A stretch of DNA of 64,000 nt from Blastocatellia bacterium (GTDB taxonomy: Bacteria; Acidobacteriota; Blastocatellia; UBA7656): assembly GCA_036277095.1 (NCBI GenBank), contig DASUNP010000110.1:5444-69443 (forward strand), in the 5' to 3' direction. This document shows, piece by piece, positions 412 to 44,157 of this stretch; position 1 is the first letter of the stretch, and the number at the start of each line of letters is the position of its first letter. The notes under the pieces were generated by a model that worked only from the letters and a program-made list of their open reading frames with translations, ran no database searches and was not told the DNA's origin. The position numbers and the translations under genes were made by a program.

Positions 412-424
412 CAAAGGACAGATT

Positions 425-5414: not shown

Positions 5415-5555
5415 CAGGGGTCGGGGGTCAGGGGTCAGGGGTCAGGGAAGAGGTTATCTGAAATATCAAATTTGTATGGCGGATGATGCGCTTGCGCGCG
5501 CCGCGATTACAAATCCCTGATCCCTGGCCCCCGACCCCCGACCCCTGGAGAGATT
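5415..5555 (+). repeat. Type-A junction element: phased heptamer array (CAGGGGT)x5 - AT/GC core - (ATCCCTG/ACCCCCG/ACCCCTG)x5, forming a ~33-bp imperfect inverted repeat; G-quadruplex-capable G-run arm
   Basis: Read directly: caggggt|cgggggt|caggggt|caggggt|cagggaa ... atccctg|atccctg|gcccccg|acccccg|acccctg|gagagat|tATG. The 7-nt phase is kept across all 141 nt. The right arm contains the SD of the next gene. Confidence 0.8.
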
Positions 5556-10900: not shown

Positions 10901-11125
10901 AGAGCCGCCCCTTGTGTCTGCGCCCATTTCAGACCTGACGGCGAAAACACGCACGCCGCCGATCTCCCCCAGGTCGAAATAGGTTTTATGCCTTCCTGGT
11001 AGTTCCTTGTAATCGCGGTTAGTCAGGGCTTTGGTCCGTTCAAGCAGAGACTCGGTTTCGACGTCTGTCACGGTGACGAGTAAAACATCGCATCTCGATC
11101 TGAGTTCAGTGCCGGGCTTTTCCAT
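7973..11125 (-). CDS. STAND NTPase with N-terminal PNP_UDP/MTA-nucleosidase-like domain, NB-ARC ATPase and C-terminal TPR repeats (NLR-like, candidate defence/signalling protein)
   Basis: ORF-track frame 7973..11269. N-terminal region (RCDVLLVTVTDVETE ... GADTRGGSLLTVKDAIDEVQPSDVILVGIAFGV ... GGEMEGGGLYIACE) resembles purine/MTA nucleosidase motifs; compare the EME-x-A motif of MtnN. Walker A AWGGVGKTALV. Walker B TLLILDGLE. Sensor-1-like CVISTRE. GLPL-like GHAFSLTLLG. MHD-like DAHPLVREY. The C-terminal ~400 aa is helical-repeat/TPR-like. Start set at MEKPGT (11125), just before the first beta-strand of the nucleosidase fold. The upstream in-frame ATG at 11269 would add 48 low-complexity R-rich residues and lies inside a hairpin. 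Confidence 0.8.
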   Translation of the reverse strand: MEKPGTELRSRCDVLLVTVTDVETESLLERTKALTNRDYKELPGRHKTYFDLGEIGGVRVFAVRSEMGADTRGGSLLTVKDAIDEVQPSDVILVGIAFGVNPKKQKIGDVLVSLQLQPYELQRVATTEAGATKIILRGDKPHCSEKLLDRFRTIRLRWKKAGVDFGVVLSGQKLIDNIDYRDELLALSEEAIGGEMEGGGLYIACEQSKSKVNWILIKAICDWADGKKGVRKKQRQKIASENAAEFVLEMVASGLLAGPQSRSSTDTAIESQPQKPPSLEPDMISISRLPTSGPDLFGRDAELQLLDDSWANPNTNIIAFVAWGGVGKTALVNHWVKQRMARDNYRGAERVYSWSFYSQGTNEQATSADEFIYAALRDFGDNDPTQGTPWDKGERLARLIRQTRTLLILDGLEPLQHPPGAQGGLLKDAALQALLRELAAHQPGLCVISTRERVSDLVEFENSTVIQHDLDQLSPQAGAQVLRALNVKGDEEELEEAAIEFNGHAFSLTLLGSYLDVVLRGDIRRRREIENLFDVRQPGDKAQKMIAAYEKWLGEGVELAVLRMMGLFDRPADAASIAALRAAPAILGLTEALQDVSKVKWQEALANLRRIKLLGAELINEPDTLDAHPLVREYFKQQLKRERPDAWREANNRLYEHLKRTTKEFPDTVEEMSPLFAAVLHGCAAGRHQEASGEVFSRRIRRGREAFSIHKLGAFGADLATLSSFFEILWEQPVAGFSDAYRAFVLSEAGFNLRALGRLEEAAQPMQAGLEARIASENWENAAINALNLSELYVTIGDLPQALVFAQQSVDLADRSGDEFPRMISRAAFADALYQAGHTEEAVIAFREAEEMEKQGQPAHRFLYSLRGFQYCDLLLNQGQIQDVKERAAYTLEIARRNNWLLEIALDNLSMGRASLLGAQQAGRGDTTQAAEFLQRAVDGLRQAGTTHHLPRGLLTRAELHRVNGDYGLAERDLTEVLRIATRSGMGLHLANCHLEYARLHLAQGNRDKAREHWKIAKEMIERMGYGRRNKEVKEIARQLGLEITTDDHS

Positions 11126-11260
11126 CCTAAGCCTCACGCTATTGATCGAAAGTAATCTCAACCATACTAATCGAATTTCTCGAAGTGGCAAGGGCAAAGA
11201 ACGGCGGACGACAGAAGTCTTTATATTGGGAAACCATTTCCCAAAAGTGAACATCCGCCG

Positions 11261-11287
11261 GGCCGCCATTATTTGGCGGCCTTTTTC
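11261..11287 (+). terminator. Perfect 8-bp-stem palindrome GGCCGCCA-TTATT-TGGCGGCC followed by TTTTTCT (intrinsic-terminator-like on the + strand) in the divergent STAND/response-regulator intergenic region
   Basis: Read directly at 11261..11281 plus the T-tract. It overlaps the alternative upstream ATG (11269) of the STAND frame. Confidence 0.45.
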
Positions 11288-11344: not shown

Positions 11345-11388
11345 AATCATGCGAGGGTTAATTTCGGCAAGCAGTTTTGAGTTACATC

Positions 11389-12561
11389 ATGAGAAGTACT
11401 GATTCACCAATTGCGCGCGCCTTGATAGCCGACGATCAGCCCGATGTGATCGAAGCGCTAAGACTCTTGCTCAAAGGCGCGGGATACCAGACTAAAGCTG
11501 TGACTTCGCCGGCTGCCGTGCTCGAAGTTCTAAAGACTGATCGCTTCGACCTGCTTCTGATGGACCTGAATTACACACGCGATACGACGTCGGGCCGCGA
11601 AGGGCTTGATCTGCTTTCGCGAGTCCAGGCCCTCGACTCTACGCTCCCCATTGTCGTGATGACCGCCTGGGGCAGCATCGACCTGACGGTCGAAGCCATG
11701 AGGCGCGGCGTTCGCGATTTTATTCTGAAGCCGTGGGAGAACTCGCGGCTGCTCGACGTTCTGCGCGAGCAGATCGAATTCGGCGTCGCCGCCCGCCGTG
11801 AGCAATCCTTGAAAGCTCAAGCTGATGCTCGTACGCGCGAGCGCGACCGGCAGATCGAAGAGGCTCGCGAGATTCAACGCCGCCTGGTGCCGAAAGAGAT
11901 TCCGCAGGTTTGCGGCTGCAATATCTCGTTCGCGTGGCGCCCGGCAGAAGCAGTCAGCGGCGATTATTTCGACGTGCTCAAGTTCGACGATTCGCGCGTG
12001 GGCCTGGTCGTGGCTGACGTGTCGGGCAAAGGATTGCCTGCCGCTTTGCTGATGTCAAACGTGCAGGCCGCGGTAAAAGCTTTCGCTTCCGCAGACCCCA
12101 ATCCCGCAGAAGTCTGCACGAGGGTGAACCGTGTCGTGGCAAGCAACATCGCCGACGACAAGTTTATAACTCTGCTCTACTGCCTCGTGGATTGCCGCGC
12201 GCGGAGACTCTCGTACGCGAACGCCGGTCACAACGCGGGCGTCGTCGTTCGCAAATCGGGCGCGGTCGTCAGGCTGGAAAAAGGGGGCGCGGTCCTCGGG
12301 CCGTTTCCTGAATGCTGTTATGAACAGGGCGAGGTCGAGATAAGCCCGGGCGATAGGGTCCTTTTATTCACAGACGGAATTACCGAAGCGAGAAACGAAG
12401 CCGGGGAAGAGTTCGGCGAAGAGCGGTTGATAAGGTTGGCGGTCGACAGCCGCGCGCTCGACGCCTGCGATCTGCAAGCGGTTGTCACACGGGCAGTGAG
12501 TGATTACGCCCGCGATAGCTTCCACGATGATGCGACACTGGTCGTGCTTTCGGTCGATTAG
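11389..12561 (+). CDS. Response regulator with REC receiver domain and PP2C/SpoIIE-type serine phosphatase output (RsbU-like)
   Basis: REC domain: LIADDQPDVIEALRLLL ... DLLLMDLNY (phospho-acceptor Asp) ... IVVMTAWGS ... FILKPW. Coiled-coil linker. PP2C motifs GDYFDV, VADVSGKGLPAALLMS, LFTDGITEA. The ORF track begins at a TTG (11377); the first ATG is 11389. Confidence 0.85.
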   Translation: MRSTDSPIARALIADDQPDVIEALRLLLKGAGYQTKAVTSPAAVLEVLKTDRFDLLLMDLNYTRDTTSGREGLDLLSRVQALDSTLPIVVMTAWGSIDLTVEAMRRGVRDFILKPWENSRLLDVLREQIEFGVAARREQSLKAQADARTRERDRQIEEAREIQRRLVPKEIPQVCGCNISFAWRPAEAVSGDYFDVLKFDDSRVGLVVADVSGKGLPAALLMSNVQAAVKAFASADPNPAEVCTRVNRVVASNIADDKFITLLYCLVDCRARRLSYANAGHNAGVVVRKSGAVVRLEKGGAVLGPFPECCYEQGEVEISPGDRVLLFTDGITEARNEAGEEFGEERLIRLAVDSRALDACDLQAVVTRAVSDYARDSFHDDATLVVLSVD

Positions 12562-12594
12562 TCGAAACAGGTTCCGGCGAAGAGAGGTAAAGCG

Positions 12595-15027
12595 ATGGAA
12601 ACTCTTTTGAAAGAGGTCCGGTTTGGATTTCGGATGCTGCGCAAATCGCCGGGCTTTACGCTCGCGGCGGTCATCTCGCTTGCTTTGGGGATAGGCGCGA
12701 ACACAGCAATCTTTAGCGTCATAAACACTGTCTTAATAAAACAGCTTCCGTACAACGACCCCGAAAGCCTCGTGCTGCTCTGGGGCAAAGATGCCGCAGA
12801 AGGCACCGAGCGAGATCAGGTCTCTTTCACAGATGTTGAAGACTGGCGCAAGCAATCTCTCGCGTTCGAAGAGATCACCGCCTACACCGACTGGAGGCCG
12901 ATACTGTCGGGCGTGGGCGAAGCCGAAAGAGTTCCCGCGATGCAGGTCGGGGACGGTTACTTCCGCGTTATGAAAGCCGAGCCGATCCTGGGCCGCGTCT
13001 TCACGCCCGAAGAGCAACAAGAAGGCAAAGACTTTGTCATCATTCTGGGCTACGGATTGTGGCAGCGGCAGTTCGACCGAGACCCCGGCGTCGTAGGTAA
13101 GACTGTTTACCTCAACAGCCGACCTTACACGGTCGTCGGGGTAATGCCGGAAAGTTTTCAGCCGCTCCCGGCGGGGCTCGTCAATCCTGCGGCTGAGATG
13201 TACCGGCCCGTGGCCGAAGCCTACGACGATGAAGAACGCGGCTCTCGTCACCTCCGAGCTATCGGTCGCCTCAAGCCCGGCGTAGAGATCAAGCAAGCTC
13301 AATCTGAGATGACGCTGATTGCCGACCGCCTGACGCAAGAACATCCGCGATCAAACACGGATTACAGCGTTCGCGTAGTCAGCATCACGGACGACACTGT
13401 GGGCGGACTTCGCGAACCGCTGCTGCTCGTCTTCGGGGCAGTCGCTTTCGTGCTGCTGATCGCCTGCGCGAACGTGGGCAACCTGTTGCTTGCGAGGTCG
13501 ACGGCGAGGCAAAAAGAGATTGCGATCCGCGCGGCTCTCGGGGCGCGGCGGTGGCAGCTCATTCGACAGTTTTTAGCCGAAAGCCTGGTGCTCTCTTTGA
13601 TGGGCGGGGCGATCGGGCTTCTTTTTGCGCTGTGGGGCGTCGGGCTGATCGCGGAGGTCGCTTCGCGCGTAATGCCGCTCATAAGCCAGGTTGAGATAAA
13701 CCTTCCCGTGCTCGTGTTCACGCTGGCGGTTTCGGTTGTCACGGGGGTCGCCTTCGGACTTGCGCCCGCGCTCCACGCGACGAAGCCCGATCTGAACGAG
13801 TCGCTCAAAGAAGGCGGCCGCCAGTCGGGCGCCGGGGCGGCGCGCAACCACCTGCGCAACTGGCTCGTGATCTCAGAAGTGGCGCTCGCGCTGGTGCTGC
13901 TGGTATCGGCGGGGCTGATGATAAAGAGCGTCCTCAAGCTGCGAAACATCGATCCCGGTTTCAACGCTGAAAACGTCCTGACGATGGACGTATGGCTGCC
14001 CTACGCCAAGTATCGGAACGACCCGAGCCGGCTCGCCTTTTACGATCGCCTGATCGAGCAGGTGAAAACGATTCCCGCCGTTCAATCGGCTGGCGTGACA
14101 AGCATACTGCCGCTCGGCAGCAACTTCGATGGCCGAGCTATTCAAGTCGAAGACCGACCCGTCGCTTTAGGTGAAGAGCCCGAGGCGGAGCTTTACATAG
14201 CGACTCCCGGCTACCTGGAGGCGATGGAGATTCCCGTTCAACGAGGGCGATCATTTACAGAGCGCGATAAAGAGGGCGCGCCGTTGGTCGCGCTCGTCGG
14301 CGAAACATTCGCCGAGCGTTACTGGCCCGGCGAAAACCCCGTGGGCAAGCGGATCAGGTTCCCCGGCTCTGAGTCTCGACCGCAGCCGTGGCGCGAGGTC
14401 GTCGGAGTGGTAAAGGACGTGAAGCAAAAGAAGCTGGATACGGGCGGCACTTTGCAGATCTATATGCCGCTCGCGCAGTACCCTTCATCGGCGATGACGC
14501 TCGTGGTTCGCGCGGAGTCAGACCCCGCGTTGATGACGGCGGCGGTCCGAAAAGAGGTTCTCGCCGTCGATGCGGAGCAAGCCGTCTTCAACGTAGCGAC
14601 GATGAATCAATGGCTGACCGATTCGATCTCGCTGCGCCGTTTCTTGATGATGCTGCTCGGCGCGTTCGCGGTCGTGGCATTGACGCTCGCAGCCGTTGGC
14701 ATCTATGGCGTCATCTCTTATTCGGTCTCGCAGCGAACGCACGAGATAGGCATACGTCTCGCGCTCGGCGCAAAGAGCCGCGACGTGCTTAAGCTCGTCG
14801 TGGGTCACGGGCTGTGGCTCGCCGTGGTCGGCGTCGCTATCGGCGTGGCAGGCGCGCTCGCGGCGACGCAGTTGATGACAAGCCTGCTCTACTCTGTCGA
14901 AACGGCGGACCCCGCGACATACGTTTCAATCTCGCTGCTGCTCATTCTGGTAGCCGTTCTCGCAAGCTACATCCCGGCACTCCGCGCGTTAAGAGTAGAC
15001 CCGATGGTCGCGCTCAGGCACGAGTGA
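12595..15027 (+). CDS. ADOP-type duplicated permease
   Basis: 810 aa. [22 protein letters not shown] ... [31 protein letters not shown] ... [16 protein letters not shown] ... [18 protein letters not shown] upstream. Lies 33 nt downstream of the REC-PP2C gene. Confidence 0.9.
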
Positions 15028-15069
15028 TTTCAAATTTGAGATTTGAGATTTGAGATTGAGAGGGAACCT
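15028..15069 (+). repeat. AT-rich heptamer junction (TTTCAAA then TTTGAGA x3), 42 nt = 6 heptamers, merging into the SD
   Basis: tttcaaa|tttgaga|tttgaga|tttgaga|ttgagag|ggaacct ATG. Confidence 0.8.
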
Positions 15070-17544
15070 ATGGACAGCTTACTGCAAGATTTGCGTTACG
15101 CGATGCGCGCGATGATAAAGCGACCGGCCATCAACGCCGTGGCCGTGATCGCCCTGGCCTTAGGCATAGGCGCGAACACAGCGATCTTCAGCGTCATCAA
15201 CGCCCTGCTTTTGCAACCACTGCCCGGCGTCGAAGACCCCGACCGGCTCGCCGTCGTCTACACGTCGGATTTCAGCAGCAGCCTCTATAGCACCTCTTCG
15301 TTCCCTGACTACATCGATTTCCGTGACCGCAGCGACATGTTTTCGGGGCTTGCGGCTTTCAGCGATTCTGTCGCTATCAACCTGGGCGTGGGCGACGGGG
15401 CCGAGCGGATTCAAGGGGCGATCGTGACGGGCAACTATTTTTCTCTGCTCGGAGTCAGCCCGCGCATGGGCCGCACACTGCTGCCGGATGACGACAGGCC
15501 CCAAAGCAGCCCGGCCACGGTCCTGAGCCACGAGCTTTGGCAGAACCAGTTCGGGGCTGACCAGAACATCATCGGCAAGACCGTTAGCCTCAACAACCAG
15601 AGCTTCACGGTCGTAGGCGTCGCGCCCGACGAGTTCAAAGGCGTGCGCTTGGAATCGGCCCCCGCGCTGTGGATACCGATGGCGACGATAACGCTGATTC
15701 AACGCTCGCCCGCTACCATCTTCGCGCAGCGCGGCTCGCGGTGGCTAGGCATCATAGGCCGCCTTGGCCCTGGGGCCACCGCCGAGCAGGCGCAGGCGCA
15801 GATACAGACTATCGCCGACGGTTTAGCCGCCGCTTACCCAGACACGAATCTGGGAACGCTCCAACAGCCCGATCAACCCCGGCCCATGTCTGTCGTTCCC
15901 GCGAACGTGGCTATGGTCAACCCCAACACGCGCGAGGAGACGGAAAACTTTGTAACGCTTCTTATGATAGTGGTCGCGGTGGTTCTGGTGATCGCGTGCG
16001 CCAACGTGGCTAACCTGCTTATCGTTCGCGCTCGCGGGCGTCAGAAAGAGATTGCCGTGCGCCTCGCTTTAGGCGCGAGCCGCTTCCGCATCATACGGCA
16101 GATGCTTACTGAAAGCCTCTTTCTATCCCTTGTGGGCGGGGCCGCGGGGCTGCTGGTGGCCGTCTGGATGACCGAACTCTTATCTTCATTCGACCAGCTA
16201 AGCTCTTTCGCCGCGCTCGACATAAGCGTCGATACCAGCGTGCTGGTATTCACATTGATAGTCTCGGTCATGACTGGAATTCTTTTCGGGCTCGCCCCCG
16301 CGATACAAGCATCAAGACCCGATCTGGTACCCGCCTTGAAAGATTCGCAAGGCCGGGAGATTTCCCGGAACCGCCGGTTCGGCCTGCGCAGCCTCCTCGT
16401 GGTATTTCAAGTCGTCTTATCTATGGTCTTGCTCATAGGCGCGGGGCTTTTCATCAGAAGCTTGCAGAAGGCTTACACGACTGATCTCGGCTTTGCCGTA
16501 AACAACGCTCTGCTCGTCACGGTCGATCTGAACGCTCAAGGATACAACGAGGCTCAAGGGAGAGAGTTCTACAAACAACTCTTAGAGCACGTCGAGGCTC
16601 TGCCGCGCGTCGAGTCCGCGAGCATGGCGGCATACATTCCCGTCAACGCGAACGGCAGCAGAGATAGCGTGATAGTCGAAGGCTATGAGCCGCGCCCGGG
16701 CGAGGACATGGAGCTTAACATCAACACCGTCGAGCACAGCTATTTTGAAGCCCTGGGCATACAGATTCAATCGGGGCGTGGCTTCGACGAGCAGGACCGA
16801 TTGTCGCCGCAAAAAGTTGTGATAAATGAAGCGATGGCCGAACGCTACTGGCCTGGGCAGTCGCCAGTCGGCAGGCGCATCAAGTTGGGCGATGCGCGAA
16901 GCCCTTTTCTTGAGATCATAGGCGTAGCCAGGACGGGCAAGTACCGCAGCTTCCGTGAGCAGCCGCTGCCTTACATCTACCTGCCATACGATCAACAGTA
17001 CAGGACCAGGATGACGCTATTGGTTCGCGCGACGGGAAACCCGGCCACGATCTTGCCCGCCGTGCGGGCCGAGGTCCAAAGGCTCAATAAAAACGTCCCG
17101 CTCTACAATGTGAAAACCCTTACAGAGCATTTAGGCGTTGCGCTCGCCAGGGAGCGGATGATTGCTACGCTCGTTGGCATGTTCGGGCTGCTTGCGCTGT
17201 TGCTCGCGGCGGTAGGCATTTACGGGCTCATGGCGCACTCGGTCTCCGAGCGCGTTCACGAGATAGGTATTCGCATGGCGCTGGGCGCGCAGAAGAGAGA
17301 CATACTCGTGCTCGTGCTGGGCCATAGCTTGTTGCTTTCCGGGGTGGGCCTGGTCGCGGGCATCGTCTCTACGCTCGTTTTCACCCGTCTGATCTCCAGC
17401 CTGCTTTACGAGGTCAGCCCTACTGACTCTGTAGCCTTTGTGACAGCCGCGCTGACGCTGACCGGAGTGATGTTGCTGGCGAGCTACATCCCGGCCCGTC
17501 GCGCCGCGAATGTCGACCCGATGGTCGCGCTCAGGTACGAATAG
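15070..17544 (+). CDS. ADOP-type duplicated permease
   Basis: MDSLLQDLRYAMRAMIKRPAINA ... VIACANVANLLIVRARGRQKEIAVRLALGA ... [16 protein letters not shown] ... [13 protein letters not shown] at 15070 preceded by GAGAGGG. The ORF-track start 15043 is a TTG inside the heptamer junction. Confidence 0.9.
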   Translation: MDSLLQDLRYAMRAMIKRPAINAVAVIALALGIGANTAIFSVINALLLQPLPGVEDPDRLAVVYTSDFSSSLYSTSSFPDYIDFRDRSDMFSGLAAFSDSVAINLGVGDGAERIQGAIVTGNYFSLLGVSPRMGRTLLPDDDRPQSSPATVLSHELWQNQFGADQNIIGKTVSLNNQSFTVVGVAPDEFKGVRLESAPALWIPMATITLIQRSPATIFAQRGSRWLGIIGRLGPGATAEQAQAQIQTIADGLAAAYPDTNLGTLQQPDQPRPMSVVPANVAMVNPNTREETENFVTLLMIVVAVVLVIACANVANLLIVRARGRQKEIAVRLALGASRFRIIRQMLTESLFLSLVGGAAGLLVAVWMTELLSSFDQLSSFAALDISVDTSVLVFTLIVSVMTGILFGLAPAIQASRPDLVPALKDSQGREISRNRRFGLRSLLVVFQVVLSMVLLIGAGLFIRSLQKAYTTDLGFAVNNALLVTVDLNAQGYNEAQGREFYKQLLEHVEALPRVESASMAAYIPVNANGSRDSVIVEGYEPRPGEDMELNINTVEHSYFEALGIQIQSGRGFDEQDRLSPQKVVINEAMAERYWPGQSPVGRRIKLGDARSPFLEIIGVARTGKYRSFREQPLPYIYLPYDQQYRTRMTLLVRATGNPATILPAVRAEVQRLNKNVPLYNVKTLTEHLGVALARERMIATLVGMFGLLALLLAAVGIYGLMAHSVSERVHEIGIRMALGAQKRDILVLVLGHSLLLSGVGLVAGIVSTLVFTRLISSLLYEVSPTDSVAFVTAALTLTGVMLLASYIPARRAANVDPMVALRYE

Positions 17545-17620
17545 CATCGTCATTCGTCATTTGTCATTTGTCCTTCGCATTCTCTTCAAAGGACGAATGA
17601 CTAAGGACAAAGGACAGATT
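17545..17620 (+). repeat. Type-B junction element: (TCATTCG/TCATTTG/TCATTTG/TCCTTCG) arm and complementary (GACGAAT/GACTAAG/GACAAAG/GACAGAT) arm forming a hairpin whose right arm supplies the SD
   Basis: catcg|tcattcg|tcatttg|tcatttg|tccttcg|cattctc|ttcaaag|gacgaat|gactaag|gacaaag|gacagat|tATG. Short remnants GACAAAGGACA(G/A)ATTATG also occur at 411-427 and 22628-22643. Confidence 0.75.
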
Positions 17621-20038
17621 ATGGACACGCTCATAAGAGATTTGCGATACGCGGTTCGTATGCTGGCAAAAAAGCCTGCCTTCACGGTCGTGGCGGTGCT
17701 GGCGCTGGCTTTGGGGATAGGAGCCAACACGGCGATCTTCAGCGTAGTCAATGCCGTGCTGCTGCGCCCGCTTCCCTATAGCGAGCCGGATCGGATCGTA
17801 AAGGTGTGGGAAGTCTTTCCGAACGTAAACCTCCGGGCCGATAAAGCGAGTGTCGCGCCCGCCAACTTCATCGACTGGGCTAATCAGAATCAGGTCTTTG
17901 AACAGATCGCAGCTTATAGCGGCGCGCGCGCGGGATTCAATTTCACAGAGGGCGGCCAGTCCGAACATATACAGGGCGCGCGCGTCTCGGCCAGCCTGTT
18001 CCCGCTCCTGGGCGTTCAGCCGATCCTGGGTCGCTTCTTCACAGAGGATGAGGACCGGCAGGGTAATCACCGGGTTATTGTCTTAAGCCAGGGGTTCTGG
18101 CAGCGCAGGTTTGGTTCAGACCACGACATCCTCGGCAGGACGCTCATTCTCAACCTCCGCAGCTACACTGTGATCGGGGTTATGCCTGCCTCCTTTGACG
18201 TGCCGCGCTCGGTCGACTTTTGGGTCCCGATGGCTTTCGACGCCGAAGAGGCGAAGACGCGCGATTTCCATTATCTCAGCGTGATAGCTCGCCTCAAGCC
18301 GAACGTCACGGTCGAGCAGGCGCGCGCCGAGATGATAGTGGTCGCTAGCCGCCTGGAACAGGAGCACCCGGTAACCAATGCCAATTACGGTGTGCAACTC
18401 AATCTGTTGCGCGAGCACCTGGTCGGCCCGGTTCGGCCCGCGCTGCTCACCCTGCTCGGCGCAGTCGGGCTGGTCCTGCTAATCGCCTGTGCAAACATAG
18501 CCAACCTATTGTTGGCCCGCGCGGCAGCCCGGCAAAAAGAGATCGCCATTCGTCAGGCTCTTGGCGCAAGCCGTCTCCGGCTGATTAAGCAGATGCTGAC
18601 AGAGAGCCTGCTTTTGTCTCTGCTGGGCGGCGTCATCGGCGCGATAATCGCTTTGTGGGGGACAGACCTTCTCGCCAGCCTTAGCCCGGAAAATATCTCG
18701 GGCCTCGGTCAAATCAAAAACGATGCTCGCGTGTTCGGCTTCACCCTGGCAATCTCGCTGCTGACGGGCGTCATCTTTGGCCTCGCGCCCGCCCTCCAAG
18801 CCACGAAGCCGCGTCTGAGCGAGATGCTCAAAGAAGGCGGACGCTCTGTGGGCGGCTCGGCCCGCAGCCGCACGCGGAGGCTGCTGGTCGTTTCGGAAGT
18901 GGCGTTGTCGCTCGTGCTGCTGGTAGGGGCGGGGTTGATGATAAAAAGTTTCATGCAACTTCAAAGCGTCGCCCCCGGATTCGATTCCAATAACCTGCTG
19001 ACGGTCAAGCTCTCCCCAACTATTTCCAAGTTTCGCAACCAGGGTGAAGGCATCGCTTTCTACCAGAAGGTCATCAATCAAGTCGAGTCGCTGCCCGGTG
19101 TCGTTTCGGCAGCCGCGGTCACTCACCTTCCTCTCAGCAATGATAACCTGAGCCTCACGTTCACAATCGATGGGCGGCCTGCGCCGGCTCCAGGTGAAGT
19201 GCTTTCCGCCGAGGCTCGCGCAATCAGCCCCAATTATTTTCAGACCATGTCGATCCCCTTTTTAAGCGGACGTGATTTTACGGATCGAGATAATGCTCAA
19301 GCCGCGCCCGCGATCATAATCAACGCAAAGATGGCCGACACGTTCTGGCCCGGCGAGGACCCTGTGGGTAAGCGCCTGTTTATGGACAACGAAAAGACTT
19401 CGCGCGAGATCGTGGGCGTTGTGGGGGATGTGAAGCATTGGGGGCTTGAGGAAGAATCGAGACCCGAGATGTACTGGCCGCTTTATCAAAACCCTGTCGT
19501 ATTCATGTCAGTCGTGATTCGCTCGACTTCGGATGCCGCCGGTCTGGCTGCCGCCGTGAGAAGCGAAGTCGAAGCGATCGACAAAGATCAGCCCGTCTAC
19601 AACACCAGGACCATGGAGCAGTTGCTTTCCCGCTCCGTGGCTACTCGGCGCTTTACCGTGCTCTTACTCGCCGTCTTCGCAGCTGTGGCACTGGTCCTGG
19701 CAGGCGGCGGAATATACGGCGTCATATCTTATTCGGTCTCTCAGCGGACGCGCGAGATAGGTATTCGCATGGCGCTCGGCGCGAGGTCGCAAGACGTTCT
19801 CGAAATTGTAGTGGGCGAGGGGTTAAAGCTCGCCGCCGTTGGCGTGGCGATAGGGCTTGCCGGGTCGTTAGCGTTAACCCGCTTGCTGTCAAGCATGCTT
19901 TATGGTGTGAGCACGACCGACTCTCAAACTTTTATAGGCGTCTCGCTGCTGCTTACGTTTGTGTCTTTGCTTGCGAGCTACATCCCCGCGCGCCGCGCAA
20001 CGAGAGTCGATCCGTTAGTCGCGCTCAGGTACGAATGA
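17621..20038 (+). CDS. ADOP-type duplicated permease
   Basis: MDTLIRDLRYAVRMLAKKPAFT ... [31 protein letters not shown] ... [16 protein letters not shown] ... VDPLVALRYE. ATG at 17621 preceded by AAGGACA. ORF-track start 17510 lies inside the previous gene and junction. Confidence 0.9.
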   Translation: MDTLIRDLRYAVRMLAKKPAFTVVAVLALALGIGANTAIFSVVNAVLLRPLPYSEPDRIVKVWEVFPNVNLRADKASVAPANFIDWANQNQVFEQIAAYSGARAGFNFTEGGQSEHIQGARVSASLFPLLGVQPILGRFFTEDEDRQGNHRVIVLSQGFWQRRFGSDHDILGRTLILNLRSYTVIGVMPASFDVPRSVDFWVPMAFDAEEAKTRDFHYLSVIARLKPNVTVEQARAEMIVVASRLEQEHPVTNANYGVQLNLLREHLVGPVRPALLTLLGAVGLVLLIACANIANLLLARAAARQKEIAIRQALGASRLRLIKQMLTESLLLSLLGGVIGAIIALWGTDLLASLSPENISGLGQIKNDARVFGFTLAISLLTGVIFGLAPALQATKPRLSEMLKEGGRSVGGSARSRTRRLLVVSEVALSLVLLVGAGLMIKSFMQLQSVAPGFDSNNLLTVKLSPTISKFRNQGEGIAFYQKVINQVESLPGVVSAAAVTHLPLSNDNLSLTFTIDGRPAPAPGEVLSAEARAISPNYFQTMSIPFLSGRDFTDRDNAQAAPAIIINAKMADTFWPGEDPVGKRLFMDNEKTSREIVGVVGDVKHWGLEEESRPEMYWPLYQNPVVFMSVVIRSTSDAAGLAAAVRSEVEAIDKDQPVYNTRTMEQLLSRSVATRRFTVLLLAVFAAVALVLAGGGIYGVISYSVSQRTREIGIRMALGARSQDVLEIVVGEGLKLAAVGVAIGLAGSLALTRLLSSMLYGVSTTDSQTFIGVSLLLTFVSLLASYIPARRATRVDPLVALRYE

Positions 20039-20170
20039 CAGGGATCAGGGGTCAGGGGTCGGGGGTCAGGGTTTTGTAATTTCAATGGCGGATGATGCGC
20101 TTATGCGCGCCGCGATTTCAAATCCTTACCCCTGACCCCTGGCCCCCGACCCTCGACCCCTGGAGGGATT
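20039..20170 (+). repeat. Type-A junction element (second copy)
   Basis: cagggat|caggggt|caggggt|cgggggt|cagggtt ... tccttac|ccctgac|ccctggc|ccccgac|cctcgac|ccctgga|gggattATG. Shares the central block atggcggatgatgcgctt..gcgcgcgccgcgatt with the 5415 copy. Confidence 0.8.
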
Positions 20171-22627
20171 ATGAATACGCTCTTGAGAGATTTGCGATAC
20201 GCGGTTCGTATGCTGGCAAAGAGGCCTGCCTTCACGGTCGTGGCTGTGCTGGCGCTGGCTTTGGGGATAGGAGCCAACACGGCGATCTTCAGCGTAGTCA
20301 ATGCCGTGCTGCTGCGCCCTATGCCGTACGAGAACCCGGACCAGCTAATTATGCTCTGGGAGACTAACCCGAGGCTTCAGCTCGGGTTCGATGAGGTTTC
20401 AGTCGCGCCCGCTAACTATGTCGACTGGAAAAACCAGAATAGCGTGTTCGAACAGCTCGCGGCTTTCTGGCCCAGCACCTATAACATCACCGATGCAGGC
20501 CAGCCCGAAAGGCTCGAAGGCGTAGAAGTCTCGTCAGATCTATTCTCCTTGCTGGGCGTTCAGGCGGCTCGCGGTCGGACTTTTTCCAAAGGTGAGGATG
20601 AGCTGGGTAATCACCGTGTCGTCGTCGTAAGCCACGGCCTCTGGCAGCGGCGCTTCGCATCAGACCCCGAACTCATAAATAGAACGATCAAGCTTAACGG
20701 CGAAGAGTTCACCGTCGTCGGCGTCATGCCCGAAGGCTTCCAGTTCCCGCGCAGGACCGAGCTGCCCGCACAGTATCGGTTCTTCCCCCCTCAGCCGGAG
20801 CTATGGACCCCGCTTGCCTTCACTCCCGCCCGCATACAGAATCGCGGCACTCACAACATTGCCGTCATGGGCAGGCTTAAATCGGGTGTCACGATAGATC
20901 AAGCGCGAGCCGAAATGAGTTCTATCGCAAGCCACCTCGCGGAGCAGTATCCCAGGACTAATCGCGGCTTCGACGTGCTGCTCACGCCCTTGCACGATCA
21001 GGCCGTGGGGCGCGTGAAACCTGCGCTCCTGATTCTGTTCTCTGCCGTCGGGCTTGTATTGATGATCGCCTGCGCGAACGTCGCGAATCTTCTGCTCGCG
21101 CGCGCGGCGACCAGAAAGAAAGAAGTCGCTATACGCACGGCCCTCGGAGCGGGACGGCGGCGGCTCGTCCGGCAGTTCTTGACCGAAAGCGTGTTGCTCG
21201 CTTTTGTAAGCGGAATACTCGGTTTGCTGCTGGCTCTGTGGGGCATAGATATTCTTTTGGCGCTCGCGCCCGAAAACCTCCCGCGCCTGCACGAGGTAAG
21301 CCTGGACATTTATGTGCTCGGCTTTACCCTGCTGGTTTCGCTCGTCGTGGGGGTGGCCTTCGGACTGGCTCCGGCCTATCAGGCTTCAAAGCCCGACCTC
21401 ACCGAAGCGCTCAAAGAAGGAGCGAGGGGCTCGGCCGTAAGCATCGTCCGCAACCGCACCCGCAGCCTTCTGGTGGTTGCTGAGATTGCGCTGTCGCTTG
21501 TGTTGCTCGTTGGCGCGGGGCTGTTGATAAAGAGCTTCATCAAGCTCCAGCAGGTCGATCCCGGTTTCAATCCCGAGCGGGTCTTTACGATCGACATAGC
21601 GCTGCCTGACGCGACTTATCCTGAAGCCGATCGCCAGCTAGCCTTCTTCGATCAAGCCCTCGATAAAATCGCTGCTTTGCCCGGCGTCGAGTCTGCGGCC
21701 ATCAGCACGAGCATACCCTTCAGCGGGTCAGAAAACAGCACCAGCTTTTCCGTCGAGGGGAGCCCGCCCGCCGATCAGATCCCCCAGGCCGATTACGCGA
21801 TGATAGGGCCGGGATTCTTCAACACGATGGGCATCCCCTTCGTGCGCGGGCGCGATTTTACAGAGCGCGATAACAGAGAGGCCCCGCAGGTTGTTATCGT
21901 TAGCAAGAGCCTGGCCGAGCAATTCTTCCCGGGCGCGGACGCAATCGGGAAACGGTTAAATATTTCGCTTAGCTCTGAGGGGCCGAGGCCGAGTGAGATC
22001 GTCGGGATAGTCGGAGACGTGAAGTATTCTGCGTTGAACGCCGAGCAAATACCTGCGCTCTACCTGCCGCACAAACAATTCCCCGGCGGCTTTGTATACG
22101 TGGTCGTGCGTTCTGCTTCCGACCCGTCGAGCCTCGCCGCTAGCGTTCGCGGCGAAGTCTGGACAATCGATAAAAACTTGCCGGTCTCTTCCTTACAGAC
22201 GATGGAGCAATTAATCGCCACTTCGGTCGCGTCACAGCGATTCAACATGCTGCTGCTTGTAATATTCGCAGCCGTGGCGCTGGTCCTGGCGGCCGTCGGA
22301 ATCTACGGCGTGATGAGTTATTCAGTCACACAACGCACTCACGAGATAGGCATACGCATGGCTCTAGGCGCGCAGGCCGTAGACGTGTTGGCGCTGGTTG
22401 TGAGGCAAGGGATGGGGCTCGCATTCGCGGGCGTCGGCGTGGGACTCTGCGCGGCGTTTGTTTTGACGCGGTTCATGCAGAGCTTGCTTTTCGGAGTAGC
22501 TGCCACAGACGCAGCTACATTTATTCTCATCTCGTTGCTGCTGACCGCGGTGGCCATAATGGCGAGTTATTTCCCCGCGCGCCGTGCAACGAGAGTCGAT
22601 CCGTTAGTCGCGCTCAGGTACGAATGA
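20171..22627 (+). CDS. ADOP-type duplicated permease
   Basis: 818 aa. MNTLLRDLRYAVRMLAKRPAFT ... [31 protein letters not shown] ... [16 protein letters not shown] ... VDPLVALRYE. SD GGAGGG upstream. The first ~150 nt are ~94% identical to the 5-prime end of the 17621 paralog. Confidence 0.9.
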   Translation: MNTLLRDLRYAVRMLAKRPAFTVVAVLALALGIGANTAIFSVVNAVLLRPMPYENPDQLIMLWETNPRLQLGFDEVSVAPANYVDWKNQNSVFEQLAAFWPSTYNITDAGQPERLEGVEVSSDLFSLLGVQAARGRTFSKGEDELGNHRVVVVSHGLWQRRFASDPELINRTIKLNGEEFTVVGVMPEGFQFPRRTELPAQYRFFPPQPELWTPLAFTPARIQNRGTHNIAVMGRLKSGVTIDQARAEMSSIASHLAEQYPRTNRGFDVLLTPLHDQAVGRVKPALLILFSAVGLVLMIACANVANLLLARAATRKKEVAIRTALGAGRRRLVRQFLTESVLLAFVSGILGLLLALWGIDILLALAPENLPRLHEVSLDIYVLGFTLLVSLVVGVAFGLAPAYQASKPDLTEALKEGARGSAVSIVRNRTRSLLVVAEIALSLVLLVGAGLLIKSFIKLQQVDPGFNPERVFTIDIALPDATYPEADRQLAFFDQALDKIAALPGVESAAISTSIPFSGSENSTSFSVEGSPPADQIPQADYAMIGPGFFNTMGIPFVRGRDFTERDNREAPQVVIVSKSLAEQFFPGADAIGKRLNISLSSEGPRPSEIVGIVGDVKYSALNAEQIPALYLPHKQFPGGFVYVVVRSASDPSSLAASVRGEVWTIDKNLPVSSLQTMEQLIATSVASQRFNMLLLVIFAAVALVLAAVGIYGVMSYSVTQRTHEIGIRMALGAQAVDVLALVVRQGMGLAFAGVGVGLCAAFVLTRFMQSLLFGVAATDAATFILISLLLTAVAIMASYFPARRATRVDPLVALRYE

Positions 22628-22640
22628 CAAAGGACAAATT

Positions 22641-25061
22641 ATGGATACGCTCTTGAGAGATTTGCGATACGCGATTCGTATGCTGGCAAAAAGGCCGGGC
22701 TTTACTGTCATTGCCGTGCTGACGCTCGCAATAGGGATAGGCGCGACGACGGCCATCTTCAGCGTAGTCAATGCCGTGCTGCTGCGCCCGCTCGATTACA
22801 AAGAGCCGGACCGGTTGCTGACGGTCTGGGAGAATCACGAGGCGCGCGAGGGGCCGAAGAATGAATGGACTTCGCCTCCTAATTTCGGCGACTGGAGAGA
22901 TCAGAATAATGTCCTTGAGGGCCTGGCCGCGCTGCAAGGTTGGGGGCCGACGCTCACGGGCGGGGCCGAGCCTGAGATGTTGAACGGCGCTGCTGTCTCT
23001 CACGACATGTTTCAGGTCTTGGGCGTCGAGCCTGCAATGGGGCGCAGCTTCCGTGCAGAAGAAGACCGCGCGGGCGCCGAGCGCGTCGTCATACTCGGCC
23101 ACGGGGTATGGAAACGAAGGTTCGGCGGCGATGAAGCTATACTCACTCGACCCATCACGCTAAACGGCGAAGCCTACACGGTCGTGGGCGTAATGCCCGA
23201 AGGGTTTCGCTTCCCCATCATCTCAAACGCCGAAGCATTCGTGCCGTTGATGCAGATCGTAAACAGCACCTGCGACCGGGGCTGCTACACGCTGAGGACA
23301 ATCGGCAGGCTCAAACAGGGAATCACGGTCGAACAGGCGCGCGCAGACATGGGCGCGCTCGCCGCAGGGCTTGCGGAGAAGCACCCTGATGTAAACATAG
23401 ATGTGGGGATCACGCTCGTCCCGTTGCACGAGCAGGTCGTAGGCTCCGTTAAGCCCATGCTGCTCGTGCTGCTGGGAGCCGTAGGCTTTGTATTGCTGAT
23501 CGCCTGCGCGAACGTGGCGAATCTGATGCTTGCGCGCGCGGCCACGCGGGCCAAAGAGATAGCCATTCGGACGGCGCTCGGCGCGAGCCGCGCCCGGCTG
23601 ATCCGCCAGCTTTTGACTGAGAGCTTGATACTTTCTTTGATTGCAGGCGCGCTCGGTTTGCTGCTCGCGTTCTGGCTCGTCGACGTGATGATTGCTTTCA
23701 GCCCCACAGGCACTCCGCGCATCGACGAAGTAGCGATAGACAAAACCGTGCTCGTCTTCACGCTCATAGTCGCCGTAGCCACGGGTCTTATCTTCGGACT
23801 CGTCCCGGCGCTTGAAACCACCAGGCCCGACTTCGGCCAGTCGCTCAAAGAGGGCAAGGGGACGGACGCGGCTTCGGGCGGGAAGGCAGTCCGCAACACG
23901 CTTGTCGTGGTGGAAGTCGCGCTCGCCTTGATGTTGCTGATAGGAGCGGGGCTCTTGATAAAGAGCTTTGCAAAGCTCTTGAACGTCGACCCGGGTTTCA
24001 ACCCTTCAAACGTGTTGACGCTCCAGCTCAACTTGCCGCGCACGAGATACCCCGAAGGCCAGCACGTCGCGGCCTTTTACGCGGACCTCATCGGTCGCGT
24101 AAAGAATTTGCCCGGGGTCGAATCGGTCGCCGCCGCTTCGTCGCTGCCGCTCGGCGGGCCGAACACGGACGCCAGCTTCTTTGTAGAAGGCCGCCCCGCC
24201 CCATCGCCCGGAGAGGAGCCCGCAGCGTGGTACTCGCTTGTGACTGCCGATTACTTCCGAACGATGGGCATGCGTATGGTGAGCGGCCGCGCGTTCGACG
24301 AGCGAGACCATACAAAATCTCCTCAGGTGATCGTCATCAACGAGACTATGGCCCGCCGCTACTGGCCGGGCGAAGACCCTGTCGGCAAGCGTGTGATAAC
24401 GGGCAGCATAAACAACCCGAACCGGCGCGAGGTCGTCGGCGTGATCGCGGACGTGAAGCATTTCGGTATAGACGCAGACGCGCGACCGACTATGTATTTC
24501 TCTCACGCGCAGATCCCTGCGCGACTGATGACCCTCACGGTGCGCACGAATGCTGAGCCGACCTCGCTTGCCACGGCCGTCCGCAGCCAGGTCTCGGACA
24601 TAGATAAAGAGTTGGCCGTTTCAAACATCAGCAGCATGCAAGAGCGGGTTGCGACCTCGATCGCGCCCTCAAGGCTGATTATGCTGTTGCTCGGTCTATT
24701 CGCCGGGCTGGCCCTTTTGCTTGCGGCCGTCGGCATCTACAGCGTCATCGCCTACGGCGTCACACAGCGCACGCGCGAGATAGGCATTCGCATGGCTTTA
24801 GGCGCGCAGGCCGTAGACGTGCTCAAGCTCATCGTGGGGCAGGGAATGACGCTCGCGCTCATAGGAGTGGCGATCGGGCTAGGGCTGGCCGTAGCGCTCA
24901 CCAGATTCATGCAGGGCTTGCTTTATGAAGTAGACGCCTTCGACCCCGTGACGTTCGCGGCGATCTCGCTGCTGCTTGTAGGCGTCGCGTTGCTTGCTTG
25001 CTACATCCCTGCGCGGCGCGCGGCAAAAGTCGACCCGATGGTCGCGCTCAGATACGAATGA
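22641..25061 (+). CDS. ADOP-type duplicated permease
   Basis: 806 aa. MDTLLRDLRYAIRMLAKRPGFT ... [31 protein letters not shown] ... [16 protein letters not shown] ... [17 protein letters not shown] upstream. Confidence 0.9.
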   Translation: MDTLLRDLRYAIRMLAKRPGFTVIAVLTLAIGIGATTAIFSVVNAVLLRPLDYKEPDRLLTVWENHEAREGPKNEWTSPPNFGDWRDQNNVLEGLAALQGWGPTLTGGAEPEMLNGAAVSHDMFQVLGVEPAMGRSFRAEEDRAGAERVVILGHGVWKRRFGGDEAILTRPITLNGEAYTVVGVMPEGFRFPIISNAEAFVPLMQIVNSTCDRGCYTLRTIGRLKQGITVEQARADMGALAAGLAEKHPDVNIDVGITLVPLHEQVVGSVKPMLLVLLGAVGFVLLIACANVANLMLARAATRAKEIAIRTALGASRARLIRQLLTESLILSLIAGALGLLLAFWLVDVMIAFSPTGTPRIDEVAIDKTVLVFTLIVAVATGLIFGLVPALETTRPDFGQSLKEGKGTDAASGGKAVRNTLVVVEVALALMLLIGAGLLIKSFAKLLNVDPGFNPSNVLTLQLNLPRTRYPEGQHVAAFYADLIGRVKNLPGVESVAAASSLPLGGPNTDASFFVEGRPAPSPGEEPAAWYSLVTADYFRTMGMRMVSGRAFDERDHTKSPQVIVINETMARRYWPGEDPVGKRVITGSINNPNRREVVGVIADVKHFGIDADARPTMYFSHAQIPARLMTLTVRTNAEPTSLATAVRSQVSDIDKELAVSNISSMQERVATSIAPSRLIMLLLGLFAGLALLLAAVGIYSVIAYGVTQRTREIGIRMALGAQAVDVLKLIVGQGMTLALIGVAIGLGLAVALTRFMQGLLYEVDAFDPVTFAAISLLLVGVALLACYIPARRAAKVDPMVALRYE

Positions 25062-25171
25062 CAGGGATCAGGGGTCAGGGGTCAGGGTTTTGTAATTTCA
25101 AATTTCAGATTTGAGATTTCAAATCCTTACCCTTGACCCCTGGCCCCCGACCCCCGACCCCTGGAGGGATT
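25062..25171 (+). repeat. Type-A junction element (third copy; AT-rich heptamer core instead of the GC-rich central block)
   Basis: cagggat|caggggt|caggggt|cagggtt|ttgtaat|ttcaaat|ttcagat|ttgagat|ttcaaat|ccttacc|cttgacc|cctggcc|cccgacc|cccgacc|cctggag|ggattATG. Confidence 0.8.
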
Positions 25172-27607: not shown

Positions 27608-27648
27608 TTTCAAATATCAAATTTGAAATCTCAAATTGAGGGAAGCCG
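27608..27648 (+). repeat. AT-rich heptamer junction
   Basis: tttcaaa|tatcaaa|tttgaaa|tctcaaa|ttgaggg|aagccgATG. Confidence 0.7.
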
Positions 27649-30075: not shown

Positions 30076-30116
30076 CTCAAATCTCAAATTTGAAATTTCA
30101 AATTGAGGAGAAAGCG
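30076..30116 (+). repeat. AT-rich heptamer junction
   Basis: ctcaaa|tctcaaa|tttgaaa|tttcaaa|ttgagga|gaaagcgATG. Confidence 0.7.
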
Positions 30117-33699: not shown

Positions 33700-33760
33700 A
33701 AGTGCTGAGTCCTGAGTAATTGTTTTCCACTCAGCACTCAGCACTCAGGACTACAGAAAG
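33700..33760 (+). terminator. Hairpin after the repeat-protein gene (GTGCTGAGTCCTGAGT ... ACTCAGCACTCAGGAC)
   Basis: Inverted repeat read directly. No clear U-tract, so function as a terminator is uncertain. Confidence 0.4.
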
Positions 33761-33773
33761 GTTGAGCAACTTT

Positions 33774-44038: not shown

Positions 44039-44157
44039 CAGGGATCAGGTGCCAGGAGCCGGGGGCCAGGGATTCGTAATTTCAAATCTCAAATTTGATA
44101 TTTCAAATCCTTCTTTCCCCTGAACCCTGACCCCCGATCCCCGACCCCTGGAGAAAG
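44039..44157 (+). repeat. Type-A junction element (fourth, degenerate copy; 119 nt = 17 heptamers)
   Basis: cagggat|caggtgc|caggagc|cgggggc|cagggat|tcgtaat|ttcaaat|ctcaaat|ttgatat|ttcaaat|ccttctt|tcccctg|aaccctg|acccccg|atccccg|acccctg|gagaaag|ATG. Confidence 0.75.

Follow-up and report, generated by a model that had tools for sequence, protein, structure and literature searches.

A palindrome of heptamer repeats between two ADOP permease paralogs of an acidobacterium, probably an STRR-like element of rapid turnover

The hairpin between the coat and replicase genes of phage MS2 sequesters a ribosome-binding site (RBS) and is used for translational coupling. Among the repeats of bacterial genomes, the REP, BIME and REPIN elements of Proteobacteria can affect mRNA stability and the translation of neighbouring genes. 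The closest described systems are the STRR repeats, whose 7-bp units form intercistronic hairpins, such as that of hupS-hupL, in Anabaena, Nostoc and Lyngbya; their function is unknown, and roles in transcript stability or translational coupling have been proposed (PMC2670836). In Beggiatoaceae, Cyanobacteria and Bacteroidetes, another heptamer, TAACTGA, is directly repeated ahead of start codons (PMC4679880), and runs of TTTTGAA and GAC(C/T)AAT lie near start codons in Nostoc 7120 (bioRxiv 10.1101/2022.06.06.494920). According to the account of Mrazek et al. given in PMC4679880, heptanucleotides outnumbered every other class of long simple repeats in most of the genomes of that study, and polymerase slippage was proposed as their cause. 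In the literature that we searched, no such heptamer palindromes were described in Acidobacteriota, nor any outside cyanobacteria and Beggiatoaceae. Here, we describe one in a permease gene array of an acidobacterium.

The stretch of DNA that we analysed, called the window hereafter, is 64,000 nt long and is dominated by about 19 tandem, co-directional ADOP paralogs (TIGR03434, about 805 aa, E values down to 0). The 76 nt from 17545 to 17620 are the entire stop-to-start spacer between two of these permease genes. The spacer and its surroundings contain the following features.

15070-17544, plus strand: upstream ADOP paralog, with its TAG stop at 17542-17544
17537-17542, plus strand: first copy of ACGAAT, made of the last codons of the upstream gene and the first base of its stop
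17549-17575, plus strand: left arm, four heptamers GTCATTC GTCATTT GTCATTT GTCCTT
17576-17588, plus strand: loop or inner irregular region, cgcattctcttca, partly paired in the RNA minimum free energy (MFE) structure
17589-17619, plus strand: right arm, AAGGACG AATGACT AAGGACA AAGGACA GAT
17593-17598, plus strand: second copy of ACGAAT, within the right arm and followed by GAC (17593-17601)
17610-17614, plus strand: AAGGA, resembling a Shine-Dalgarno sequence (SD), 6 nt before the start codon and within the stem
17621-20038, plus strand: downstream ADOP paralog, ATG at 17621-17623, TIGR03434 with E = 0

The protein of the downstream gene starts with MDTLIRDLRYA, and its paralogs begin likewise. 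Since the spacers lack stop codons in at least one frame, ORFs called mechanically (17510, 15043, 25133, 41582) start within the hairpins or ahead of them, which makes the N-termini of the permease paralogs too long. An earlier note on this DNA had parsed the spacer into heptamers (tcattcg/tcatttg/tcatttg/tccttcg ... gacgaat/gactaag/gacaaag/gacagat/tATG), and this parsing is exact. Tandem Repeats Finder (TRF) reports a period of 7 with 5.3 copies at 17547-17582 and 4.3 copies at 17587-17616, a lag-7 scan concurs, and the spacer thus has the 7-nt period and the three or more units of an STRR. The two arms do pair, as had been proposed. A repeat finder places them at 17549-17575 and 17589-17615, 27 nt each and 81% complementary, and several registers shifted by 7 nt are possible between them. 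The RNA of the spacer has an MFE of -28.1 kcal/mol; dinucleotide shuffles reach -14.0 +/- 2.7, and none of 200 is as good (z -5.3). The stem reappears when folded in a context of 101 nt. The minus strand folds just as strongly (-28.8), and significance extends to the fold as DNA. Since both strands fold equally well, the spacer is a palindrome without a strand-specific, RNA signature. Rfam gave no match at gathering score in the whole window, and for the spacer alone, at E of 1 or less, it returned just generic miRNA-hairpin matches below threshold (17-21 bits, thresholds 80-108).

The right arm had been read as the SD and start of the downstream gene, and the AAGGA and the start codon are indeed found there, both predicted to be occluded; we presume that AAGGA acts as the complement of the anti-SD. 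We computed partition-function accessibilities for all 18 ADOP starts. At 17621 the SD region (positions -15 to -6) is predicted to be unpaired with a probability of 0.13 and the AUG with one of 0.05. None of the 18 starts has a lower value for the SD or for the RBS window as a whole, and just one has a lower value for the AUG. In the MFE structure the AUG pairs with 17555-17557 and the SD with 17564-17568. The identical SD in two short junctions that have no left arm is predicted to be unpaired with probabilities of 0.63-0.65. In the junctions of the other hairpin families, SD accessibility ranges from 0.19 to 0.60 and that of the AUG reaches 0.95 (0.87-0.95 at junctions 20171 and 25172), and the SD (GGAG, GAGGGA) lies at or past the 3' foot of the stem. 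Hence, the claim that the SD is inside a stem stands, as a prediction, for 17621 and fails as a general rule, the other hairpin junctions being largely open.

One might speculate that such a hairpin is dedicated to translational control. It would have been selected to sequester the SD and the AUG, would be opened by a terminating ribosome (coupling) or by a trans-acting factor, and would set the stoichiometry among paralogs. The start at 17621 is the most occluded overall of the 18, the same SD is predicted to be open without the left arm, and the outermost stem (17555-17557 with the AUG) is within reach, given the size of the ribosome footprint, of a ribosome on the TAG at 17542-17544. Translational coupling has also been proposed for the hupS-hupL STRR hairpins (PMC2670836). 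Yet, a terminating ribosome would free the AUG and not the SD, which pairs with 17564-17568. This account is also at odds with the open RBS of the other hairpin junctions in the array and with the equally good fold of the non-transcribed strand, which leaves no RNA-specific signature. With the evidence from the sister copy and from relatives given below, we regard it as unlikely.

The sequence family of the spacer (type B) recurs elsewhere in the window. The motif AAGGACAAAGGACA, searched with up to 2 mismatches, has 8 matches where 0.17 are expected, and GTCMTTYGTCMTT, with up to 1 mismatch, has 12 where 0.36 are expected. Within the window these matches are confined to 407-419, 17549-17615, 22623-22635 and 54179-54240, so that the four places named by the earlier note are its sole sites of the motif, far above chance. 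Three of them are additional to the spacer.

407-424, plus strand: first short junction, gAATGACAAAGGACAGATT, equal to the last units of the right arm, without a left arm
22623-22640, plus strand: second short junction, gAATGACAAAGGACAAATT, with the stop TGA at 22625-22627 and the ATG at 22641, without a left arm
54175-54244, no strand assigned: second full type-B hairpin, filling the gap between convergent stop codons

The stop of the first short junction (TGA, 409-411) lies inside its first heptamer. All 20 nt of GACAAAGGACAGATTATGGA agree between 410-429 and 17606-17625, and 19 of the 20 are also found at 22626-22645. The end of the same arm precedes two other paralogs, as had been claimed, and the block of 20 nt shared by the right arm and the short junctions shows that the likeness exceeds the SD consensus, the alternative against which the alignment was set.

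The related hairpin at 54175-54244, which had been noticed after the last permease gene, is also confirmed. Its folding energy is -34.9 kcal/mol (z -5.6). The left arms of this copy and of the spacer (17545-17578) are about 90% identical beside neighbouring coding 3' ends that are 58% identical; the loop of the spacer (17576-17588) is unrelated to that of this copy. This is the one type-B copy in the window that sits outside any permease-permease junction. It lies exactly between the stops of the last ADOP gene (plus strand, TAG at 54172-54174) and of a gene of the Uma2 family (minus strand, 54245-54853; PF05685, E = 4e-43). In such a convergent gap it cannot act on an SD, and dedicated translational control has to account for a sister copy with no downstream start.

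The copy at the end of the array had been called an end-of-array terminator or a relic junction. The latter label is unnecessary in a convergent gap. The former touches on a broader account, in which these hairpins are selected RNA 3'-end elements, either terminators or attenuators (factor-independent or factor-assisted) or REP-like barriers to 3'-to-5' exonucleases. They would determine where the upstream cistron ends or how stable it is, and at 54175 one hairpin would do this for the two convergent genes. The exact fit of the 54175 copy to its gap is in line with such a role. So is the strong hairpin found right after the last ADOP stop in every relative examined (at 95%, 90% and 83% identity), in three unrelated sequences, one of which (L157/L158) has a T-rich tail. 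It counts in favour as well that, in E. coli, the mRNA upstream of REP elements is stabilised by them. RNase R and PNPase target REP mRNAs (PMC12320835). However, a T-run is missing behind both type-B stems, where the sequence continues with ttATGgacacg at the 17545 copy and with aagctaccatatc at the 54175 copy. A consensus terminator scan of 12000-31000 gave no site at 17545-17620 and a total equal to the shuffled expectation. With neither T-run nor scan site, the spacer lacks the marks of an intrinsic (Rho-independent) terminator. Termination inside a tight co-directional array would moreover silence at least 12 downstream paralogs, and in relatives the internal junction needs no hairpin. 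We thus find selection for a 3'-end function improbable as the origin of the spacer, and a terminator or 3'-end role at 54175 possible in spite of the missing T-tract. Structure at the end of the array may be useful as a 3'-end element, or such gaps may merely tolerate palindromes.

The spacer belongs to a set of junction hairpins built of heptamers, as the earlier note had it. The window holds at least six period-7 sequence families (types A and B and four more) and one 8-mer family. All 14 period-7 tracts in the window are intergenic, and every left arm starts 1-5 nt after a stop codon. Two hairpins of the 8-mer (CGCAGAGA) adjoin unrelated genes, and many junctions of the array measure 13-22 nt and have no hairpin. 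Inheritance of gene and junction as one unit by tandem duplication was considered and rejected, since junction type is unrelated to the similarity of the flanking coding ends. The first 120 nt of genes 17621 and 20171 share 94% identity, genes 22641 and 25172 have 5' ends that are 98% identical, and in both pairs the upstream junction types differ.

We took relatives of the 17621 protein from the protein database and looked up their contigs. The corresponding junctions are as follows, with amino acid identities to the 17621 protein.

L153: 90%, positional ortholog, collinear (87% nt over 5.4 kb); spacer TAG-cg(AAGGCAA)5-aagtgaagacgggaatgcgaatcaccGGAGGtgaccg-ATG
L154: 79%, gene elsewhere in the array; 42-nt heptamer spacer of the TTTCAAA type (type A)
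L155: 79%; 12-nt spacer with GAGGAGG
L156: 78%; 14-nt spacer with GAGGAGG
P0001 contig: 95%; 60 nt from the upstream stop to the Met14 codon (115 nt in the window)

The L153 spacer has AAGGCAA direct repeats with no inverted partner or hairpin, and a free canonical SD, GGAGG. The type-B hairpin is thus retained neither at the orthologous junction (L153) nor in the closest homologs L154, L155 and L156, and exposed GGAGG or GAGGAGG sequences in the ortholog and closest homologs argue further against dedicated control. In P0001, judging from gene coordinates alone, no more than 21 nt are left for the spacer, provided that the N-terminus is intact. From these comparisons, the type-B hairpin is specific to the lineage of the window, and the content of junctions turns over within about 10% sequence divergence with gene boundaries fixed. 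Full hairpins and half-elements recur in L153, built from a different unit and with their arms oriented the other way round. Two other junctions there carry the complete AAGGCAA/TTGCCTT hairpin (187 nt, -81 kcal/mol), and the one-armed AAGGCAA version is present at a second junction. Gene content differs among relatives too, the segment 20171-22627 being absent in L153. Some heptamer hairpins do last from one species to another with their arms still complementary. Window positions 33700-33767 and L154 positions 12183-12260 differ by concerted changes in both hairpin arms, and type-A junctions are kept at about 76% nt identity between species. With the constant hairpin at the end of the array, these observations hint at selection on structure at some junctions, and a reading of the hairpins as by-products may understate their function.

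To follow the palindrome beyond this array, we wrote the pattern TGTCMTTYGTCMTT-N5-35-AAKGACRAAKGACA from the two type-B copies and searched a collection of species-representative genomes, in which less than one match is expected by chance. It occurs at 119 loci at least, in at least 5 phyla. Among the matches listed, more than half are in Nostocales and other cyanobacteria (Nostoc, Calothrix, Fischerella, Scytonema), about 30 loci are in Acidobacteriota (Blastocatellia, Pyrinomonadaceae/Pyrinomonadales, Chloracidobacterium), and the remaining ones are in Planctomycetota, Heliobacteriaceae/Clostridia, Chloroflexota, Desulfobacteraceae and a few others. A blastn search with 17549-17616 finds loci of Nostoc and Fischerella at 80-83% identity. 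The acidobacterial loci also carry two families of the window, GGGGTCA/TGACCCC and CTGAGTG/CACTCAG, and related acidobacterial MAGs, which stand in here for a genome-wide census, contain several copies of the palindrome each. No ADOP gene is present in the 8-kb locus around any of the listed loci (at least 119). Conversely, 33 metagenomic ADOP loci of other acidobacteria (255 kb), at most 47% identical to the 17621 protein and used as a negative control for repeats, not as a measure of orthology, contain a single period-7 repeat, found in two loci. Palindromes away from ADOP genes in many lineages, and ADOP loci almost free of heptamer repeats, show that the repeats are a trait of the host lineages and not of ADOP arrays. 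A linkage between the repeat and Uma2, suggested by the gene beside the 54175 copy, was dropped, there being no Uma2 match in the listed loci (at least 119).

The earlier note had seen in these hairpins a design principle of the array. Neither this nor a dedicated SD-sequestering regulator survives the comparison: the hairpin is not conserved, the RBSs of the other families are largely open, and at none of the loci listed from other genomes is the palindrome beside ADOP. The RBS occlusion predicted at 17621 is probably a side effect. If it has been co-opted at all, this was recent and is dispensable, and it is no conserved regulatory device of ADOP genes.

The placement of the palindromes elsewhere matches that in the window, close behind stop codons. 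Genes at the listed loci were called with a rough ORF-based caller that takes the longest ORF as start. Among the matches listed (at least 119), 68 are co-directional, 16 convergent and 9 divergent, 13 are inside called ORFs and another 13 at the edges of loci. In the 68 co-directional cases listed, the median distance of the core is 17.5 nt from the upstream stop and 41 nt from the start that follows; 42 of them are within 25 nt of the stop and 21 within 25 nt of the start. Stop-proximal cases exceed start-proximal ones by 43 to 25 among those listed (sign test, p = 0.04), a modest bias obtained with a crude ORF caller. A position near the upstream stop is also what a selected 3'-end element would show.

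Presence and absence of the hairpin among relatives would also fit a non-autonomous mobile element, of the MITE or REPIN type, inserted by a RAYT or another transposase whose gene lies elsewhere. The direct repeats that bracket the left arm and loop, ACGAAT at 17537 and 17593, would then be a target-site duplication, and the short junctions would be empty sites and not remnants. The two full copies share left arms of about 90% identity beside unrelated flanks, and REPINs are hairpin-forming doublets of comparable size (PMC3116915). Yet, the segment 17543-17598 is no clean palindrome with defined termini, and the right arm beyond it continues the same run of repeats. The two copies differ in loops and arm lengths, those elsewhere vary continuously in unit number and sequence, which points to slippage and not to copy-paste, and the window encodes no transposase, RAYT or integrase. 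This makes a mobile element very unlikely.

The order of the array raises another possibility, that the hairpins are cassette recombination sites like integron attC, marking the boundaries of mobile permease cassettes for a site-specific recombinase. The genes have the same orientation and are separated by imperfect hairpins, the segment 20171-22627 is missing from L153, and the closest homolog of 17621 in L154 occupies another position in its array. This idea is effectively refuted: there are no RYYYAAC/GTTRRRY core sites (neither GTT nor AAC occurs in 17545-17620) and no integrase in the window. It is also at odds with the many junctions of 13-22 nt that have no hairpin and with the same palindromes between unrelated genes in other phyla.

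The explanation that we favour, with a probability of about 0.6, is that the spacer is a lineage-specific, fast-turnover, STRR-like palindrome lying in the stop-to-start gap, with RBS occlusion and possibly 3'-end protection as consequences. The element would be a run of GTCMTTY units followed, after a few bases, by a reverse-complement run of AAKGACR. Such elements would accumulate in noncoding DNA, often about 25 nt or less past a stop, in particular lineages, i.e. Nostocales, Blastocatellia/Pyrinomonadaceae, some Planctomycetota, Heliobacteriaceae and Chloroflexota. At the DNA level they would arise, change in size, give way to others and disappear far more rapidly than the genes beside them diverge. 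Growth may involve 7-nt replication slippage together with inverted copying of one arm, and decay may involve deletion between short direct repeats, here the ACGAAT at 17537 and 17593.

Palindromes are well known to be lost when the short repeats that flank them mispair by slippage. A deletion from ACGAAT to ACGAAT would remove the TAG, the left arm and the loop, and its product would be tacgaaTGActaaggacaaaggacagattATG with an in-frame TGA. This product differs from the short junctions (cgaaTGAcaaaggaca[g/a]attATG) by exactly one heptamer. Deletion would leave a half-junction ...gaaTGAc(aaagga)cagattATG, such as those at 412-424 and 22628-22640. Both genes that bear hairpins end in TAG and both with half-junctions end in TGA within an AATGACA unit, a difference that the deletion model would explain. 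For P0001 the model predicts a spacer of about 20-21 nt, TGAc(taagga)caaaggacagatt, without a left arm. From these sequences we infer that the direction was one of deletion, not of insertion with a 6-nt duplication.

When transcribed, the element would form a stem-loop of about -28 kcal/mol reaching from 11-15 nt past the upstream stop to the downstream AUG. The consequence would probably resemble that of REP elements: independent initiation at the 17621 paralog would be damped, with the SD and AUG buried, and the 3' end of the upstream cistron may be protected. Any such effect on expression is deduced from the modelled fold.

One might go further and speculate that the heptamer palindromes are one system across phyla. 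A shared, horizontally spread, sequence-specific machinery (a binding protein, a nuclease or a polymerase activity) would seed and maintain them, often behind stops, and in ADOP arrays they would be exchangeable modules that set the translation of paralogs and drive rearrangement of the array. On this reading, the same few units, TTTGTCA, TTTCAAA, GGGGTCA, CACTCAG and the 8-mer, recur across Cyanobacteria, Blastocatellia, Planctomycetota, Heliobacteriaceae and Chloroflexota. This is a bold conjecture and we give it little credence.

The value of these observations lies less in the single hairpin than in the repeat class that it exposes. STRR-like palindromes, described for cyanobacteria, are here abundant, with the same units, in soil Acidobacteriota and other phyla. 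The window offers natural pairs with and without the left arm (17621 versus 425 and 22641) for probing the effects of repeats on expression, and turnover within about 10% divergence provides a comparative handle on how STRR-like repeats arise.

Comparison with known systems places the spacer closest to the STRRs. Like the hairpin between the MS2 coat and replicase genes, the stem is predicted to bury the downstream SD and AUG and to start within reach of the upstream terminating ribosome. Hairpins of the MS2 type are conserved and gene-specific, whereas that of the spacer is absent in the ortholog and closest homologs and belongs to a repeat class that is probably genome-wide. TAACTGA repeats show the same patchy spread across phyla and a suspected translational role (PMC4679880). 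They are repeats of one orientation (169 direct sets and one indirect) with another unit, whereas the spacer is defined by its inverted pair. With REP, BIME and REPIN elements, as commonly described (see also PMC3116915), the spacer shares the character of short extragenic palindromes of 3' UTRs and intercistronic spacers, and like them it is probably dispersed and variable between strains. REPs, in contrast, are not tandem heptamers and have a conserved family consensus and a RAYT transposase, of which there is none in the window, whereas copies of the spacer type elsewhere grade into each other in unit number and sequence. As in STRRs, tandem units of 7 nt in opposed runs make a hairpin between co-transcribed genes. 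The left-arm unit equals TT(G/T)GTCA, which we take to be the STRR2 unit, and the pattern derived from the spacer matches dozens of Nostoc, Calothrix, Fischerella and Scytonema loci exactly among the matches listed. The differences lie in the host, which is no cyanobacterium but an acidobacterium (nearest relatives Blastocatellia/Pyrinomonadaceae) of about 59% GC, in the AAGGACA variant, which doubles as SD and runs into the start codon, and in the paralogous permease array, with half-elements at sister junctions. Hence, the spacer adds a new host phylum and a new context to a known class of repeats, that of the STRRs.

In L153, a collinear relative about 88% identical to the window, a single family of junction elements (AAGGCAA/TTGCCTT) occupies four consecutive ADOP junctions:

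L153 5927-6000, AAGGCAA/TTGCCTT junction element
L153 8419-8492, AAGGCAA/TTGCCTT junction element
L153 10914-11100, AAGGCAA/TTGCCTT junction element
L153 13537-13723, AAGGCAA/TTGCCTT junction element

Two of the four are full hairpins of 187 nt and two retain the left arm only, and within each version the copies are nearly identical. Such near-identity at consecutive junctions points to a recent homogenisation or sweep of the element. At another junction, the two arms of a hairpin have changed in concert. The orthologous junctions 3' of the 378-aa gene carry a heptamer hairpin both in the window (33700-33767) and in L154 (12183-12260), a relative with a 79% aa homolog of the 17621 protein elsewhere in the array. 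From the former to the latter the left-arm unit passes from GTGCTGAGTCCTGAGT to GTGATGAGTAATGAGT and the right-arm unit from CACTCAG to TACTCAT, so that complementarity is retained at ~76% nucleotide divergence, through either arm-to-arm homogenisation or selection.

Four junctions of the window hold long nested palindromes, of up to 141 nt and with dG down to -95:

window 5415-5555, long nested junction palindrome
window 20039-20170, long nested junction palindrome
window 25062-25171, long nested junction palindrome
window 44039-44157, long nested junction palindrome

GGGGTCA/TGACCCC heptamers form their outer arms and TTTCAAA/TTTGAGA heptamers their inner arms, and a unique GC-rich core, aatggcggatgatgcgctt..gcgcgccgcgat, is common to two of the four. 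This nesting suggests growth from the centre outwards or stepwise insertion. A further family, built on 8-mers, adjoins non-permease genes and has a match in a Heliomicrobium MAG:

window 48160-48255, 8-mer hairpin CGCAGAGA/TCTCTGCG
window 63687-63770, 8-mer hairpin CGCAGAGA/TCTCTGCG
L001 5254-5349 (Heliomicrobium MAG), matching hairpin

Identity reaches 92% over 38 nt, and the same MAG has a type-B heptamer palindrome in the 8 kb that hold this hairpin. The co-occurrence of several repeat families thus spans phyla.

Over their first 120 nt, neighbouring paralogs share 94% identity in one pair (17621-17740 and 20171-20290) and 98% in another (22641-22760 and 25172-25291), far above the 60-75% usual across the array, which suggests recent duplication or gene conversion of these 5' ends. 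The gene at 20171-22627 is absent from both L153 and the P0001 contig, which are collinear with the window. Since the heptamer spacers of the window contain no stop codon in one or more frames, mechanical ORFs start inside or upstream of the hairpins (17510, 15043, 25133, 41582), which lengthens the N-termini by 9-37 spurious residues. In the database, many homologs run to ~880-900 aa rather than ~805; their N-termini may be over-extended in the same way, or they may possess a genuine additional domain.

In each of four related genomes a strong hairpin lies just behind the stop codon of the last ADOP gene:

L157 3359-3450, hairpin after last ADOP stop
L159 4892-4950, hairpin after last ADOP stop
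L160 4940-5100, hairpin after last ADOP stop
window 54175-54244, hairpin after last ADOP stop

Their sequences are mutually unrelated, and a T-rich tail is present in the L157/L158 version alone. L157/L158 lack the Uma2 gene of window 54245-54853.

Other genes interrupt or flank the array:

window 7973-11269, strand opposite to the permeases, 1098-aa protein with PNP_UDP_1 (nucleosidase), NACHT/NB-ARC and TPR domains
window 11377-12561, after the former, response-regulator/PP2C-like gene
window 57907-59849, strand opposite to the array, MacB-type pair (ABC ATPase and 416-aa FtsX/MacB_PCD permease)

The conventional MacB-type pair lies ~3.7 kb past the array. The array itself contains no ATPase gene, which fits the "orphan" of the ADOP family name. 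The 1098-aa protein, whose gene breaks the array, resembles bacterial NLR-type defence proteins in its architecture of PNP_UDP_1, NACHT/NB-ARC and TPR domains.
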